Positions 1 through 43,294 of a DNA stretch of 43,294 nt are shown here, one piece after another (positions within the stretch are counted from its first letter, which is position 1; every line of letters starts with the position of its first letter). The translations under genes were made by a program, and so were the position numbers. Source of the stretch: a virus. The stretch lies in IMG/VR virus record IMGVR_UViG_3300026223_000001; one strand, given 5' to 3'. The notes beneath the pieces are model-generated. The model saw only the letters and a program-made list of their open reading frames with translations, searched no databases and was not told the origin of the DNA.

Positions 1-127
1 GCATGGCTTGGCCGCTACCGGGCACCGGCGGTACAGGCGGCGCGGGCGGCGGCGGCCACATTGGCTTTGAGTAGGTCACCTCGCCTGTCCGCGCGTTCGT
101 GAGCGCGATGACGATGGGTGGCGTTAC
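1..127. repeat. Terminal direct repeat, copy 1 (identical to 43168..43294); circular-contig overlap
   Basis: nt 1-127 (gcatggcttggccgctaccggg...gatgggtggcgttac) recur verbatim as the last 127 nt of the window. Confidence 0.95.
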
Positions 128-205
128 GATCATCGCCATGCCTTCTGGCATCCAGTCGCGCTCTAGTACTTTGATCCCGCAGATACTTAGCTGTTTGTCG
201 CTCAT
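1..205 (-). CDS. Hypothetical 75-aa protein; ORF crosses the window junction (205..1 joined to 43167..~43145)
   Basis: ATG at ~205 reads MSDKQLSICGIKVLERDWMPEGMAMIVTPPIVIALTNARTGEVTYSKPMWPPPPAPPVPPVPGSGQAM. The frame is still open at nt 1 and continues through the repeat copy to PPAPPVG-TGA at ~43145. It is split by linearisation, so it is absent from the track. Confidence 0.45.
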   Translation of the reverse strand, partial: MSDKQLSICGIKVLERDWMPEGMAMIVTPPIVIALTNARTGEVTYSKPMWPPPPAPPVPPVPGSGQAM

Positions 206-26251: not shown

Positions 26252-26439
26252 GCAGTCACCACGATAGTTGTTTCCCGAAGTTTCTTTATCAGGTCGCGCA
26301 CTGCCGTTTCGCGTTCATCGAGAAACGTGAGAACGCGCCGAGCCTCGGGCCAATCTGGATACTGCTCAGCCATTTCTCGCAAAGGGGCGCCGGCCTCCAG
26401 TACTCGCTCGAGATGACTCATATCAACTTGCATCACCAC
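26248..26439 (-). CDS. Hypothetical protein (63 aa)
   Basis: Track ORF. Overlaps the TerL stop by 7 nt. Confidence 0.5.
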   Translation of the reverse strand: MVMQVDMSHLERVLEAGAPLREMAEQYPDWPEARRVLTFLDERETAVRDLIKKLRETTIVVTA

Positions 26440-28643
26440 TCCATTCTGACGTTAATATCGGGCGGGTGGGTAGGTTCGGAGAAGCGGTAGCTATCGGCCA
26501 TCATAGCATAGCGGTCGCAGTCGTAGGGATGGTCCTCGGCCTCGGTGTTCGTTACAAGCACGCCGTTAGCGTAATACAGGTGCGCGGCGTTCACGGTCAG
26601 ATTGTACACCCGCCTGACGCCTACGGAGTGCCCAGCCGCAGCGATACGAACAGGTTGTGGTCTTCGCGTCAATCGTCCGAAACGCTGCAGCGCACTCACT
26701 GCAAATCCGTTCAGGCTGTCGCGCCACCCGGTCGAGATAAGCGCACCGGGGCGAGCAGAGAATCTTTCGAGGATGTCTTGTTCTAAAAGTGACTCGACAA
26801 TATCCACACGCCAGTTCATGTTCAGGGGATCGTTCACGCATTTTGACGGCATTGGCGCGGAGAATCCTCCGGCCTCTTTCCGTCCCTCGCCACTCATGGA
26901 GACCGCGCTTCTGTACTGGGTTAGCGTTGCGGGCAGCGAGATGGAGAGAGGCGTGGTCACTGGGGCTAAGAACATGGAAGTTGGACGGCTCGTTGTGGGA
27001 TGTGTCGCCATCTTCGTGATGAACGTGGTAGCCCTGCGGAATCCCTTTGCCCACGATGGCATGAACGTCTCGGTACTGCGGTTTCTTGTATGGCATACGA
27101 TGTTCTTCTGCATCAGTGTATCATTCTTCCGCAGAGCCGACAACGGCACAAGACCGTGACCGCGCACGTAGACCTTGTGGTCGAGAGTGCCTTCGAGAAA
27201 CTGGCCGCCTGACAGAGGCACGTGAATAACCGGGGCGTCGCCGGAAATACCGTCTTTGATGATGGGACAGGGGCCGATGGGGGTATCCACCAACTCTCCA
27301 GCCTGTAATGTTTCAATTGCGCGATCTCCGTCCGGCGTCGATACCATCGTGCCCGCTACGAAGCAATCGACGTCTTCGATGTTCAATTCGTCCCTGGGCA
27401 AATTAGGAATGGTGCGAATGGCGTTGGGGCAATCCGTCGTCCAAACCCAGCGCGGCGGCATAATCAACTCGCCCAGATCGCCAACGTGTTCCGCCTTAGC
27501 CCGTATCCACCGGAGGTTCTTGCGGAACAAGTTAATGCCAGCCTGGCGGTTGTTGTTGCCCTTCGTCAGCGGCACACCGCCCTCGCGGTATTCGTCGGCC
27601 ACGGAATTGCCGACCGTCTCCTTACGCTGCTGCCACATCGAGGGGTCGCCCACGTACATCGAAATCCTTTCGTTTTTGCCTGCCGCCCGGATCATTTGAG
27701 CCTGTTCGGTGGCATGATGGCCGGGGCCGTACAACTCCCGGTACGTCACCACGCGCTTCTTATCTGGGCGGCGAGCGTGCCAGTGAGCGCAAAACGGGGC
27801 CATGTAGCCGTAGTCCACGCTGACGAACCGCGTCCAGTCCTTCGGTATCTCGAACGGCTGGATCACGTGCAGGTCGCGCCGCCAGACGTCGGCGAAGACC
27901 ATTCCCTCGGCGATGTCCCAATCGCCGTATCTGAGCGCCCGCGCCATGTCGCCGCCCATCGCTAACAGCGTCGCCTCGTAGCCGGGGTTGAGCGCCATGC
28001 CGATGGGGTTGTCCTCGAGCGTAGCCGGGATGAATCGCCGCGTGCGCGTCAGCTTCGAGCCATCGGCCAGGGTGATTGTGATCGGGTGCGAGCCGCCCAA
28101 CGGGTGTGGGTCGATGTAGCGTTGTTTCACCCAGCCATGCCCCAGGCCGCCGGGGTTCGTCGTCGCCGAGACCAGCGGCTTGCAGCCGGCGATCTTGCTC
28201 CGGCAGAAGGCGTTGACGTAGTTGAAGTCGTCCTCGTTCGGAAACTGCGTCAACTCCTCCCAGCCGATGTCCTCCCAGGCCGTCCCCTGCTGCCGGTAGC
28301 GGTCCTCTGAGTGATCCATGAAGTCGAACTTCATCACGGACCCGTTGTGAAACGTGAACTTGTGCTCGTCGCCCTTCCACGCCGCCCGCCCCTTGAGCAC
28401 TTCCATCGCCCGGGGGATCATCGCCCCCTCTTTCGTCAGGTCCGTCAAGTGACGCCTGAGAATCAGCGCTGCGCTCCCTGGATACTTCTCGCGCCGGAGG
28501 ATCATCTTGGCCAAGAGCGCCTCCGTCTTGCCGCCCCAGGCAGCGCCGCCGTACAGCACCTCGTCCTCACTGGCTCGCAGAAACTCCCGCTGCTTCTCCT
28601 GCAACTTCCACTGCCGGGGCCCCGCGTCAGGTGCCTGCGTCAC
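26433..28643 (-). CDS. terL: Terminase large subunit precursor, interrupted by an intein (736 aa; extein 463 aa)
   Basis: Walker A YGGAAWGGKTEA lies near the N-terminus. The C-terminal nuclease motif is ...NIEDVD|intein|TEAEDHPYDCDRYAMM. Exteins are 27366..28643 and 26433..26546. Confidence 0.85.
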   Translation of the reverse strand: MTQAPDAGPRQWKLQEKQREFLRASEDEVLYGGAAWGGKTEALLAKMILRREKYPGSAALILRRHLTDLTKEGAMIPRAMEVLKGRAAWKGDEHKFTFHNGSVMKFDFMDHSEDRYRQQGTAWEDIGWEELTQFPNEDDFNYVNAFCRSKIAGCKPLVSATTNPGGLGHGWVKQRYIDPHPLGGSHPITITLADGSKLTRTRRFIPATLEDNPIGMALNPGYEATLLAMGGDMARALRYGDWDIAEGMVFADVWRRDLHVIQPFEIPKDWTRFVSVDYGYMAPFCAHWHARRPDKKRVVTYRELYGPGHHATEQAQMIRAAGKNERISMYVGDPSMWQQRKETVGNSVADEYREGGVPLTKGNNNRQAGINLFRKNLRWIRAKAEHVGDLGELIMPPRWVWTTDCPNAIRTIPNLPRDELNIEDVDCFVAGTMVSTPDGDRAIETLQAGELVDTPIGPCPIIKDGISGDAPVIHVPLSGGQFLEGTLDHKVYVRGHGLVPLSALRKNDTLMQKNIVCHTRNRSTETFMPSWAKGFRRATTFITKMATHPTTSRPTSMFLAPVTTPLSISLPATLTQYRSAVSMSGEGRKEAGGFSAPMPSKCVNDPLNMNWRVDIVESLLEQDILERFSARPGALISTGWRDSLNGFAVSALQRFGRLTRRPQPVRIAAAGHSVGVRRVYNLTVNAAHLYYANGVLVTNTEAEDHPYDCDRYAMMADSYRFSEPTHPPDINVRMEW
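26547..27365 (-). mobile_element. Intein (273 aa) in the TerL nuclease domain
   Basis: Starts CFVAGTMVSTPDGDRAIETLQAGELV (block A) and contains GTLDH (block B TxxH). Ends VYNLTVNAAHLYYANGVLVTN followed by +1 Thr. Codon positions were checked against track coordinates (Cys codon 27363-27365, Asn codon 26547-26549). Confidence 0.8.
26566..27096 (-). CDS. HNH endonuclease (176 aa) nested in the intein, in a different reading frame from TerL
   Basis: Track ORF. YRDVHAIVGKGIPQGYHVHHEDGDTSHNEPSNFHVLSPSDHASLH is an HNH motif. Followed by CGYCRVTF...LCSPRCAY and CSECAAAF...CSYRCG zinc knuckles. (28643-27096) mod 3 = 2, so it is out of frame with TerL. Confidence 0.75.
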   Translation of the reverse strand: MPYKKPQYRDVHAIVGKGIPQGYHVHHEDGDTSHNEPSNFHVLSPSDHASLHLAARNANPVQKRGLHEWRGTERGRRILRANAVKMRERSPEHELACGYCRVTFRTRHPRKILCSPRCAYLDRVARQPERICSECAAAFRTIDAKTTTCSYRCGWALRRRQAGVQSDRERRAPVLR

Positions 28644-39504: not shown

Positions 39505-39770
39505 GCCCGCACCGCCGAGCCGCACATGTTGCACTCCCACTCTTTTTGCCGCTCGCCCCGCCTGCCGTCGGCGTCAGCTCCGTACACGTAATCGTTGTAA
39601 GTCAGGTCACGCGCCCCACACGCCGCACAGCCGATAGGCGGGTCGCCCCACTGCGCGCGCCGTGCGTTCTCGGCCTCGATGTCGGCCAGTCTGTCGGCTT
39701 CCTGTTCGACGATCCCCTCGGCGACGCAATCGGAGCAGCCGTCATAAACCTGGCAGCCTCGCGCGATCAT
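39501..39770 (-). CDS. Small Cys-rich protein (89 aa)
   Basis: Track ORF. CQVYDGCSDC...GCAACG...ECNMCG. Confidence 0.5.
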   Translation of the reverse strand: MIARGCQVYDGCSDCVAEGIVEQEADRLADIEAENARRAQWGDPPIGCAACGARDLTYNDYVYGADADGRRGERQKEWECNMCGSAVRA

Positions 39771-40366
39771 GCCGACACCTCCGCGAGCAACTTACCGAGC
39801 ATCGCTTCCAACTTGCGATTCTGTGCGTCCCTGGCGGCGGCCCAGGTGGCGGCCCAGGCGGCGTCCCAGACGGCGTCCCAGACGGCGGCCCAGGCGGCGT
39901 CCCTGGCGGCGTCCCTGGCGGCGTCAAGCTCGCTATCGCTCGCTTTGCCCTTCAGCCACGCGCGCTTCGTCTTAATCGCCGCCCACGATCTAGGATCAGG
40001 CTCACGACCCGCTTTTCGCTCGGCTCGCAACGCTCGCTCGGCACACCAACAGGCGAATTCATGCAGTGTCTTCGTCGCGTCAGCGAATACGTGATGCGTC
40101 CGGCCTTGAGCGCACTCCTTATCGCCGCCGTGCGGGACGATAATGCCGCTCAGCGATACCCGTGACACCCAAGCGCCCCGCGAATACCGTAGGGCGTCGA
40201 TAGCCCGCCTTGAGGCGTGGAAGCCACGCTCACACGGCACAGGCTGTCCCTTGATGCTGTACGTCTTGCCAGCAATCAGCTTCTGCTTAGCGCCGAAGTT
40301 CATTCTCGGCACGTCCGTACCAGCGGCGAAATGCCAGTGAGTTCCGAGTAACGGCGCACGCTTCAT
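39767..40366 (-). CDS. Hypothetical protein with a C-terminal (D/A)AA(R/W) tetrapeptide repeat array (199 aa)
   Basis: Track ORF 39767..40552. Start moved to ATG 40366 (ATGA overlap). C-terminus DAARDAARDAAWAAVWDAVWDAAWAATWAAARDA. Confidence 0.55.
   Translation of the reverse strand: MKRAPLLGTHWHFAAGTDVPRMNFGAKQKLIAGKTYSIKGQPVPCERGFHASRRAIDALRYSRGAWVSRVSLSGIIVPHGGDKECAQGRTHHVFADATKTLHEFACWCAERALRAERKAGREPDPRSWAAIKTKRAWLKGKASDSELDAARDAARDAAWAAVWDAVWDAAWAATWAAARDAQNRKLEAMLGKLLAEVSA
39826..39921. repeat. Eight tandem 12-nt units (GCGKCCCWGDCG) encoding the tetrapeptide array
   Basis: Units are gcgtccctggcg gcggcccaggtg gcggcccaggcg gcgtcccagacg gcgtcccagacg gcggcccaggcg gcgtccctggcg gcgtccctggcg. 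Confidence 0.85.
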
Positions 40367-40662
40367 GCCGTCACCGGCTTGTCTACGATGATGCAGGCCT
40401 GCCACTCGCATGGCTCCTCGGCTTGCGGGCTGCACGTACAATCGCCCGGTTCGTACACCGCCGCGAGTAGCCGTTCCAAGCCCCGGCCTGGGGTTATCAG
40501 CATCTCTGGATGGCAATGTGTGCAGGCGCGGTAGCCGCACGCTGGCTCGCACTCAAACCAGTCGGTAGCGCTGCGCCACTCGCGCACGTCGCCGCAACGC
40601 GGACAGTGGGAGAAGCGCGCCGGGGCCATGCTATTCTGAGTCTCGATGGATGGGGTCGCCAT
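40363..40662 (-). CDS. Small Cys-rich protein (99 aa)
   Basis: Track ORF. HCPRCGD...CEPACGYRACTHCH...CTCSPQAEEPCEWQAC. Confidence 0.5.
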   Translation of the reverse strand: MATPSIETQNSMAPARFSHCPRCGDVREWRSATDWFECEPACGYRACTHCHPEMLITPGRGLERLLAAVYEPGDCTCSPQAEEPCEWQACIIVDKPVTA

Positions 40663-42304: not shown

Positions 42305-42604
42305 GTGGAAGGACTGTTCGTGGTTATGGGCGTTCGAGATTATCTGCGCGAGCAGAGGTCACGGTTCCGCACCCAGGAAGACATGCTCGCCTTCATAGAG
42401 CGCGAGTCCGGCGAGAGAGTGGCGCAGTCCACCCTATCGCTGTGGCTGTCTGGCAAGCGGGGCCTAACCAACCGACACTCGTTGCAGACCATACGCAAAG
42501 CGTTCGCGGTGTCTGACCGGAAATGGAAGCAGATGCTGTGGGCCGATATGGTTGAAGCCGAGGACGGCGAAGCCCTGAACCCGCGACGTGTTCGCACTGC
42601 CTGA
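42305..42604 (+). CDS. XRE/cI-type HTH regulator (99 aa; alternative start ATG 42326)
   Basis: RDYLREQRSRFRTQEDMLAFIERESGERVAQSTLSLWLSGKRG matches the XRE-family HTH pattern. It is divergent from the RHH gene. Confidence 0.6.
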   Translation: MEGLFVVMGVRDYLREQRSRFRTQEDMLAFIERESGERVAQSTLSLWLSGKRGLTNRHSLQTIRKAFAVSDRKWKQMLWADMVEAEDGEALNPRRVRTA

Positions 42605-42671: not shown

Positions 42672-42971
42672 GTGCGAACACTTTCCAGATACGAAATGCA
42701 ACGATCGACATTGGCGGATCATCAACAGGGTGCAATGGGCGCACCACGGCGACACATCCAGCCCATTGGCGAGCGCCGCAAGTACCGCCCCATCGACTGC
42801 ACGTGCGACGGCATCGGCCCCTACTGCGCCGTCTGCCTAGTTCTGATGGCCTGCGCCTTACGCCAAGCGCACCCGGCGACGCTCTCGATCGCCATCCTCA
42901 AAAGACGCATCCCAGGCGTCACCGGGCGCGAGGCTTCGCTGCTGCTGGAAGCCTCGAAGCTCTACGTTTGA
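42672..42971 (+). CDS. Hypothetical protein (99 aa; start uncertain)
   Basis: Track ORF. CTCDGIGPYCAVC... is followed by an HTH-like LSIAILKRRIPGVTGREASLLL. It ends next to the tRNA-like gene on the opposite strand. Confidence 0.35.
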   Translation: MRTLSRYEMQRSTLADHQQGAMGAPRRHIQPIGERRKYRPIDCTCDGIGPYCAVCLVLMACALRQAHPATLSIAILKRRIPGVTGREASLLLEASKLYV

Positions 42972-42973
42972 GC

Positions 42974-43056
42974 CGCCCTCGGTAGGACTTGAACCTACAT
43001 CCCCCGGCTTCACCTCAAGGGATCCACCGGGACTCTGCCAATTAAGCTACAAGGAC
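42974..43056 (-). tRNA. tRNA-like gene with canonical acceptor, D and T arms but a 17-18-nt anticodon loop (identity undetermined)
   Basis: Minus strand: GTCCTTG TA GCTT AATTGGCA GAGT C CCGGT [GGATCC(C)CTTGAGGTGAA] GCCGG GGGAT GTAGG TTCAAGT CCTAC CGAGGGC G. No CCA is encoded. Coordinates +/-2 nt. Confidence 0.5.
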
Positions 43057-43058
43057 GA

Positions 43059-43133
43059 TGGTAGCCGCAGCGGGACTCGCACCCGCGACCTCCGGGTTAT
43101 GAGCCCGGCGAGCTGCTGCTGCTCCATGCGGCG
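43059..43133 (-). tRNA. Initiator-like tRNA-Met (anticodon CAU) with atypical D and T loops
   Basis: Minus strand: CGCCGCA TG GAGC AGCAGCA GCTC G CCGGG CTCATAA CCCGG AGGTC GCGGG TGCGAGT CCCGC TGCGGCT A CCA (75 nt). It has a C1xU72 mismatch and GGG/CCC pairs closing the anticodon stem. Coordinates +/-2 nt. Confidence 0.6.
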
Positions 43134-43167
43134 ACTAGAGTTTATCACCCCACCGGCGGCGCTGGCG

Positions 43168-43294
43168 GCATGGCTTGGCCGCTACCGGGCACCGGCGGTA
43201 CAGGCGGCGCGGGCGGCGGCGGCCACATTGGCTTTGAGTAGGTCACCTCGCCTGTCCGCGCGTTCGTGAGCGCGATGACGATGGGTGGCGTTAC
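43168..43294. repeat. Terminal direct repeat, copy 2 (identical to 1..127)
   Basis: The last 127 nt equal the first 127 nt. Confidence 0.95.

Follow-up and report, generated by a model that had tools for sequence, protein, structure and literature searches.

G18, G19, pseudouridine 55 (Psi55) and C56 are textbook near-invariants of tRNA. A CAU anticodon together with A73 constitutes the identity for methionyl-tRNA synthetase (MetRS), the lack of a Watson-Crick 1:72 pair directs a tRNA to formylation and excludes it from EF-Tu and peptidyl-tRNA hydrolase, the G:C pairs 29-31:39-41 serve P-site and IF3 selection, and A11:U24, G2:C71 and C3:G70 are formyltransferase determinants of bacterial initiators. 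Here, we analyzed a viral DNA of 43,294 nucleotides (nt), IMG/VR record IMGVR_UViG_3300026223_000001 (hereafter the window, meaning this whole stretch), the genome of an uncultured phage, which carries an initiator-type tRNA(CAU) gene whose residues 18 and 55 are A and G. We conclude, with a probability of about 0.7, that the gene encodes a functional phage initiator tRNA of the tRNA-fMet type with a compensated elbow, in which A18:G55 takes the place of G18:Psi55.

In the elbow of described tRNAs, T-loop positions 4 and 5 (57 and 58) hold the intercalated residue 18 between them, and one hydrogen bond links this residue to Psi55; the G19:C56 pair forms the flat outer face on which the ribosome, RNase P and T-boxes stack (PMC4810234). 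Psi55 has been described as the most universally conserved tRNA modification (PMC7912444). T loops are also found in flavin mononucleotide (FMN) and cobalamin riboswitches, where they have the sequence UGNRA or YGNRA and are closed by a pair between positions 1 and 5; the intercalating base is nearly always an adenosine, which stacks between positions 4 and 5 and is held to the sugar edge of the G at position 2 by two hydrogen bonds, and according to the authors tRNA is set apart by the U at T-loop position 2 (bioRxiv 10.1101/2022.12.26.521914).

The initiator tRNA gene and its elbow

The tRNA gene and its parts are located as follows.

43059..43133, minus strand: initiator-type tRNA(CAU) gene, 75 nt including the encoded CCA (ARAGORN; Rfam tRNA; sequence)
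43110..43124, minus strand: D arm GAGC-AGCAGCA-GCUC with A11:U24; A18 is 43117 and G19 is 43116 (sequence)
43099..43101, minus strand: anticodon CAU, in the loop CUCAUAA with three flanking G:C pairs (ARAGORN, anticodon at position 33; sequence)
43075..43081, minus strand: T loop UGCGAGU; U54 is 43081, G55 43080, C56 43079 and A58 43077 (sequence; Rfam alignment)
43059..43061, minus strand: encoded 3' CCA, after the discriminator A73 at 43062 (sequence)

At default settings, ARAGORN reports a single tRNA in the window, tRNA-Met(cat) at 43059-43133 on the minus strand, and the Rfam tRNA model RF00005 matches 43062-43133 on the same strand over its full length (model positions 1-71) with 57.0 bits (E=8e-10), above the gathering score of 29 bits. 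An earlier note, written from the sequence alone, had given a 75-nt tRNA with exactly these coordinates and had left the strand unstated. No other credible RNA family was found across the tRNA region. From 5' to 3', the gene reads CGCCGCA UG GAGC AGCAGCA GCUC G CCGGG CUCAUAA CCCGG, followed by AGGUC GCGGG UGCGAGU CCCGC UGCGGCU A CCA, and reading this sequence as a cloverleaf places all 20 stem pairs, leaving aside the mismatched 1:72, in Watson-Crick pairing (20/20). The gene is thus intact: its score lies above the threshold, its stems are unbroken, and the changes seen among its homologues, described below, are coordinated.

The identity elements of an initiator are also present. Both MetRS elements, the CAU anticodon and A73, are found, the 1:72 position is C1xU72 without a Watson-Crick pair, and the stem CCGGG/CCCGG contains the three consecutive G:C pairs G29-G31:C39-C41. 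All of the initiator hallmarks that the earlier note had listed (C1xU72, G29-G31:C39-C41, CUCAUAA, A73 and the encoded CCA) are therefore borne out by the sequence, which also contains A11:U24, G2:C71 and C3:G70, absent from that list. The elbow departs from the canonical form at 18:55, where A18 (43117) and G55 (43080) are found; the rest of it, namely G19:C56, the U54-A58 reverse Hoogsteen pair and G53:C61, is retained beside the swap. Because of A18 and G55, this tRNA cannot carry Psi55 or 2'-O-methylguanosine 18 (Gm18).

Coupling of positions 18 and 55 in phages and cells

By the pattern found among other initiators, the two odd loops of the window tRNA are one coordinated swap, from G18-Psi55 to A18-G55, and not decay. 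We scanned metagenomes with the D arm GAGC-AGY-N-GYA-GCUC and the initiator anticodon arm fixed, and with position 18 and the T loop free. All 116 readable sequences among the 120 matches listed have G18 together with a TTC T loop, and the 7-nt AGYGGYA is therefore the ordinary D loop of initiators. The D loop AGCAGCA differs from it solely by G18 to A, and the T loop by U55 to G. When the same D-arm pattern was searched in IMG/VR with A18 (AGYAGYA), 12 contigs were obtained, and TGC (G55) is present in 12/12. A scan of IMG/VR with the T loop TGCRANT yielded 64 stretches, 37 of which pass a cloverleaf check, and these have AG at positions 18-19 without exception (37/37); 30 have plain AG loops, and seven have longer loops (e.g., AGGCCAGUCGU) that contain an unrelated GG besides. 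In the control scan with TTCRANT, 94 sequences among the matches listed pass the cloverleaf check, with 92 GG, 0 AG and 2 other D loops.

When distinct 72-nt initiators with 7-nt D loops were pooled, the residues at positions 18/19/55/56 are G,G,U,C in 108 sequences and A,G,G,C in 37, with three others, and an AG D loop is found in 37/40 of the distinct G55 initiators. Canonical and variant D loops form pairs that differ at position 18 alone (AGUGGUA/AGUAGUA, AGCGGCA/AGCAGCA and AACGGCA/AACAGCA). We also considered a pairing of G18-C19 antiparallel with G55-C56 and dropped it, since the D loops differ solely at the position aligned with G18, in many backgrounds.

These comparisons refine what the earlier note had said about the loops. 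Its T loop UGCGAGU with G at position 55 stands, and so does its 7-nt D loop AGCAGCA, the length of which is however normal for initiators, as the AGYGGYA loops of the metagenome scan show. The note had described a loss of G18-G19; there is indeed no GG, with G18 changed to A, but the G aligned with G19 is still there. Its statement that both partners of the D/T-loop contact are altered together accordingly holds for 18:55 and fails for 19:56, where G19 and C56 are kept. The D-arm microsatellite that it reported is visible as (AGC)4 but is no microsatellite in the evolutionary sense, because the run results from the conserved GAGC/GCUC stem combined with G18A in AGCGGCA (canonical form GAGCAGCGGCAGCUC).

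The variant initiators are under purifying selection, both as tRNAs and as initiators, which is the opposite of decay. In an alignment of 25 diverse variant initiators that includes the window tRNA, 95.4% of the stem cells hold standard pairs and 15/21 stem pairs show changes on both sides. None of 500 shuffles reached the observed pairing and covariation values, and pairing falls to 40-49% when the partners are slid against each other. The three anticodon-stem G:C pairs are invariant in this alignment, and 1:72 is unpaired in 18/25 sequences.

The coupling of 18 with 55 is general and not peculiar to initiators. Using ARAGORN on 289 sequences (2.1 Mb), we extracted the D and T loops of the tRNAs, including neighbouring tRNAs that had not been selected for either loop. 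The A18:G55 class was defined by AG in place of the D-loop G18-G19 together with an NGCRA T loop, and the window tRNA (AGCAGCA with UGCGAGU) belongs to it. Among 759 neighbouring non-initiator tRNAs, 506 are GG/U55, 243 are AG/G55, six are GG/G55 and four are AG/U55. The association is strict (Fisher p=3e-186, although the relatedness of the sequences overstates their independence), and it is the 10 off-diagonal tRNAs among the 759, rather than the p-value, that carry the message. Around canonical initiators the picture is different: at phage loci chosen for a canonical initiator (120 among the matches listed), G55 occurs in 0/374 neighbouring tRNAs, and the variant is therefore rare overall and clustered.

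A structural rationale may be found in the general T-loop rule. The window tRNA fits the UGNRA sequence (U54 G55 C56 G57 A58), with A18 as the adenosine donor. By analogy with the riboswitch loops, the variant tRNAs may have switched from the tRNA rule to this general rule while retaining G19:C56. A18 would then intercalate between G57 and A58 and form hydrogen bonds to the sugar edge of G55, and the L shape and the exposed G19:C56 face would thereby be preserved. A57 is present in 60% of variant and 14% of canonical initiators among the matches listed, a shift in the direction of the riboswitch preference; the window tRNA has G57. According to a saturation screen in a yeast suppressor tRNA, G18, U55, G19 and C56 each tolerate no single change (PMC4117946). 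Since single changes at 18 or 55 were not tolerated there, the double change implies compensation, and the same intolerance would explain why the double state alone is seen in nature.

In cells the class is rare, as only 91 variant stretches were found in representative genomes from 185,579 species. In phages, dozens of IMG/VR contigs carry A18:G55. The initiator is the sole G55 tRNA in several large phage arrays (1/26 tRNAs in L246, 1/20 in L265 and 1/13 in L273), and in others several tRNAs are variant (8/17 in L236). The closest sequence to the window tRNA (L017, 90.8% identity) shares its D arm, anticodon arm and T stem and differs from it in the acceptor stem; it sits on a 1.5-kb phage-like contig that was binned with a Limnocylindrales metagenome-assembled genome (MAG) and is not a host gene. 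As a separate observation, a 23-tRNA array in an Alphaproteobacteria MAG (L079) contains at 1389-1464 an ARAGORN tRNA with an 8-nt anticodon loop and the four-base anticodon 'caat', as well as a G55 initiator whose D loop, AGCACCA, has no G19.

Among cellular lineages, initiators with A18:G55 occur in the Patescibacteria, in Berkelbacteria, Paceibacterota (including one complete 644-kb chromosome), Saccharibacteria and Andersen-, Yanofsky- and Kaiserbacteria (loci L008, L014, L028, L033, L038, L041, L069 and L078). At these loci, canonical elbows are found in the elongator tRNA-Met, which lies a few hundred bases from the initiator, and in the other tRNAs nearby, the one exception being the elongator tRNA-Met in Kaiserbacteria L078; this pattern suggests an initiator-specific elbow in those lineages. 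In the Verrucomicrobiaceae, syntenic tRNA arrays are found in Prosthecobacter (including the isolate P. fluviatilis) and in MAGs labelled Akkermansia (L011, L021, L044, L054, L061, L088 and about 30 other loci); almost all tRNAs in these arrays, of 32 isoacceptor types, are A18:G55, and tRNA-Glu(UUC) is canonical throughout, at 20 loci. Further cellular matches come from a few Bacteroidales MAGs, the isolate Telluribacter humicola and one Poriferihabitaceae chromosome.

The phage locus and the rival explanations

The window ends in an exact direct repeat of 127 nt (1-127 = 43168-43294), and it therefore represents a circularly assembled genome of 43,167 bp. Proteins encoded by this phage include a large terminase (PHROG 979, E=1e-41) as well as one that is RecT-like, and RusA, a DnaA_C-domain protein and a weak Arc match are also on record for it. 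Most genes, including the block from the terminase to the lysis genes, lie on the minus strand. The features around the tRNA gene are listed below.

43145..43294 continuing into 1-205, minus strand: open reading frame (ORF) of 75 amino acids upstream of the tRNA, spanning the junction (circularised ORF scan; gene calls on other assemblies)
42974..43056, minus strand: second, tRNA-like gene (Rfam tRNA, 42.3 bits; fold; ARAGORN with the intron option or a relaxed threshold)
42305-42604 and 42672-42971, plus strand: two ORFs converging on the tRNA pair (circularised ORF scan)

The double stop codon of the 75-amino-acid ORF lies 11 nt upstream of the tRNA start, and judging from this layout the tRNA would be the penultimate element of a minus-strand late/lysis transcription unit. 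A promoter and terminator scan around both tRNA genes gave nothing informative. The second gene begins 2 nt past the CCA of the initiator tRNA and is probably co-transcribed with it. Its acceptor stem, D arm and T arm are good, its elbow is canonical (GG/UUC), and no CCA is encoded. Its 'anticodon' loop has 17 nt (GGAUCCCUUGAGGUGAA), is closed by a 5-bp stem and includes the palindrome GGAUCC. Default ARAGORN overlooks this gene, and the intron option returns 'Ser(tga)' with a 12-nt intron, a call that is unconvincing, the element having no long variable arm.

At least 16 contigs, assembled from JGI, ENA and Logan samples, represent this phage and share an identical 506-amino-acid protein. Megablast searches with 20 kb and with the tRNA region found no close relative in INPHARED (50,697 deposited phage genomes), the tRNA itself being the only match, and the tRNA was likewise the sole match when the fetched loci were compared with the window by blastn. 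The best tblastn matches of the large terminase have at most 37% identity and are scattered over Roseobacter, Arthrobacter, Rhizobium and Bacillus phages.

A few further observations were made on this genome. The large terminase ORF (26433-28643, minus strand) has 736 amino acids, its N-terminal terminase domain ends near residue 254-277, and residues 427-455 give a borderline Hint_2 match (28.0 bits, cut-off 28.4); the ORF may contain an intein or Hint insertion. A 12-nt tandem repeat (GCGKCCCAGRCG-like, about 10 units) occupies 39813-39944 within a minus-strand ORF (39767-40552) that has a weak DUF7666 match. The plus-strand ORF 42305-42604 looks helix-turn-helix-like by eye and has no Pfam match, and an inverted repeat of 8-9 bp, GAGGCUUC...GAAGCCUC, lies at 42930-42965 between the convergent units.

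If the gene works as an initiator, it would be transcribed at the tail of the late/lysis operon, released by host tRNA processing (RNase P and the 3' enzymes), charged by MetRS and formylated, and it would then be used in the 30S P site as the host initiator is, so that the initiator pool would be added to or maintained late in infection; simple replenishment of initiator tRNA is possible. The identity elements, the perfect stems and the coupled pair present in well over 100 independent tRNAs with compensatory changes in their stems all point to the structurally unusual functional initiator that the earlier note had named among its interpretations. Several points weigh against this conclusion. 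Expression, charging, formylation, three-dimensional geometry and benefit to the phage are what we infer, and the A18:G55 geometry is argued from the riboswitch analogy. None of the nine cultured-phage initiator-like tRNAs that were checked has the variant (0/9), all having a GG D loop and a TTC T loop. IMG/VR scans seeded with the neighbouring 288- and 163-amino-acid proteins found no diverged relatives of the phage, and the 220 nt across both tRNA genes are identical in 7/7 of the other assemblies compared, which therefore give no evolutionary signal on the conservation of this gene. The minimum free energy (MFE) fold of the tRNA (-36.0 kcal/mol) is an alternative to the cloverleaf (-33.7 kcal/mol), a comparison that is uninformative because an in-silico 'repaired' G18/U55 version behaves alike, its MFE structure likewise not being the cloverleaf.

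The swap may go beyond compensation and be adaptive in a working initiator, by freeing the tRNA from the need for a host factor that recognises G18 or Psi55, or by hiding it from such a factor. Candidate factors are enzymes that modify or chaperone tRNA (e.g., TruB and TrmH), or a tRNase or defence system directed against the T loop or elbow, and the phage initiator pool would then survive inactivation of that of the host. T-loop-cleaving toxins do exist, an example being the CdiA-CT toxin from Burkholderia E479, which cleaves between 54 and 55. The concentration of G55 tRNAs in mobile contexts (64 IMG/VR stretches against 91 from the 185,579 species), the large phage arrays in which the initiator is the sole G55 tRNA (L246, L265 and L273) and the confinement of the swap to the initiator in Patescibacteria, suggesting something initiator-specific, all speak for such a role. 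However, a variant initiator was the criterion by which the loci were chosen, so that the 'initiator-only' arrays are partly a sampling effect, and none of the loci examined links a defence or toxin gene to the swap. The swap is also fixed in seemingly chromosomal, vertically inherited genes (the Verrucomicrobiaceae arrays and Patescibacteria initiators), where phage-host conflict is no obvious driver. Moreover, the anticodon stem-loop is unchanged, and anticodon nucleases are therefore not evaded; VapC-type toxins recognise the anticodon stem-loop, and since that of the window tRNA is identical to those of canonical initiators, escape from them through the elbow is unlikely. The decoy or replacement role that the earlier note had proposed is thus not favoured, and we regard an adaptive swap in general as unlikely, although it deserves more weight than the two explanations that follow.

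A tRNA-like structure that acts outside translation, either as an RNase P/RNase Z signal ending the late transcript or as the remnant of an integration site, would agree with a position at the late operon's 3' end, where two transcription units converge, and with a neighbour 2 nt away whose 17-nt anticodon loop could hardly decode. Such a structure has no need of CAU, the three G:C pairs, A11:U24, the 1:72 mismatch, A73 and CCA, and yet all of them are present. Neither the called genes with recorded Pfam matches nor the scanned ORFs of the phage yielded an integrase, and the tRNA gene is full length, unlike the 3' tRNA fragment of a typical attP, so that we consider a role outside translation very unlikely. 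The last alternative, a tRNA pseudogene in decay, with drift in its conserved loop nucleotides, draws on the change of two of the most conserved nucleotides of tRNA (G18 and U55) and on the absence of the gene from the closest cultured phages. It is hardly credible, since the Rfam score (57 bits) is roughly double the threshold, the sole stem mismatch is the functional 1:72, and the changes are the exact coupled pair of hundreds of tRNAs with compensatory stem evolution; random decay would not strike just the two interacting residues. The earlier note had also listed a decaying gene, which this score and the coordinated, not random, changes of the homologues contradict. We therefore retain the functional initiator tRNA with a compensated elbow as the best explanation.

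Comparison with known systems

The role of the gene appears ordinary, and its elbow architecture appears undescribed and sharply defined. In the searchable full-text literature, which leaves most subscription journals outside its coverage, we found no description of the A18:G55 swap and none of Verrucomicrobial tRNA arrays with A18:G55. A18:G55 represents a natural, recurrent and strictly coupled alternative to the near-invariant pair, one that would turn the tRNA-type T loop into the riboswitch UGNRA type. It offers a natural experiment on how the elbow is built and how it is read by RNase P, the ribosome, TruB, TrmH and possibly nucleases, predicts tRNAs unable to bear Psi55 or Gm18, and flags the lineages and phages that use the swap in initiators alone or in whole sets. 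For this phage, an apparent defect becomes evidence of an intact initiator tRNA gene, and for annotation, unusual loops are no ground for dismissing such genes as pseudogenes. A broader proposal, which we offer tentatively and consider doubtful, is that A18:G55 tRNAs are a distinct, unrecognised tRNA class without Psi55 and G18 that arose or spread repeatedly, in which the swap is functionally meaningful and is exploited by phages. If so, the class would span phage initiators, Patescibacteria initiators and the near-complete Verrucomicrobiaceae sets that retain only a canonical tRNA-Glu, and the swap could insulate tRNAs from elbow-reading enzymes or nucleases, or mark the initiator or a 'second set'.

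The closest described system is the bacterial tRNA-fMet (E. coli metZWV and metY), with which the window tRNA shares the loop CUCAUAA with CAU, G29-31:C39-41, A11:U24, G2:C71, C3:G70, the 1:72 mismatch, A73, the 5-nt variable loop AGGUC and the D arm GAGC...GCUC. The two differ in A18 for G18 and G55 for U/Psi55, and also at the fourth acceptor pair, which is C4:G69 in the window tRNA and G4:C69 in E. coli tRNA-fMet. The U at position 72 does not set the window tRNA apart: among the matches listed, metagenomic initiators have T in 42% and A in 47% at this position, with C1xU72 as frequent as C1xA72. Initiator-like tRNAs of cultured phages are 77-95% identical to the window tRNA over the aligned stretch and often adjoin structural or terminase genes or sit in tRNA arrays; examples are the 'tRNA-fMet' of Stenotrophomonas phage vB_Sm_QDWS359 and those of Xanthomonas phage Xoo-sp2 and Mycobacterium phage Erdmann, and initiator-like tRNA-Met genes are also present in Nocardia phage NTR1 and Lak megaphages.

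Outside the bacterial and phage initiators, some mitochondrial tRNAs lack G18/G19 or the conserved T loop. Their interaction is lost or degenerate, whereas the A18:G55 tRNAs have a specific, covarying replacement, with G19:C56 and U54-A58 intact. The eukaryotic initiator tRNA has a T-loop signature of its own, A54 and A60 (PMC7912444). It provides a precedent for an initiator-specific departure in the T loop, comparable to the swap confined to the initiator in Patescibacteria, but it involves positions 54 and 60 rather than 18 and 55 and belongs to another domain of life, and there is no sign that the swap separates initiators from elongators. The T-loop motif of riboswitches comes nearest to the elbow itself, as the window T loop fits UGNRA and a D-loop A stands at the intercalating residue 18; what would distinguish the window tRNA from this motif is that, by the geometry proposed from the analogy, the loop forms part of a tRNA elbow in which C56 pairs with G19.

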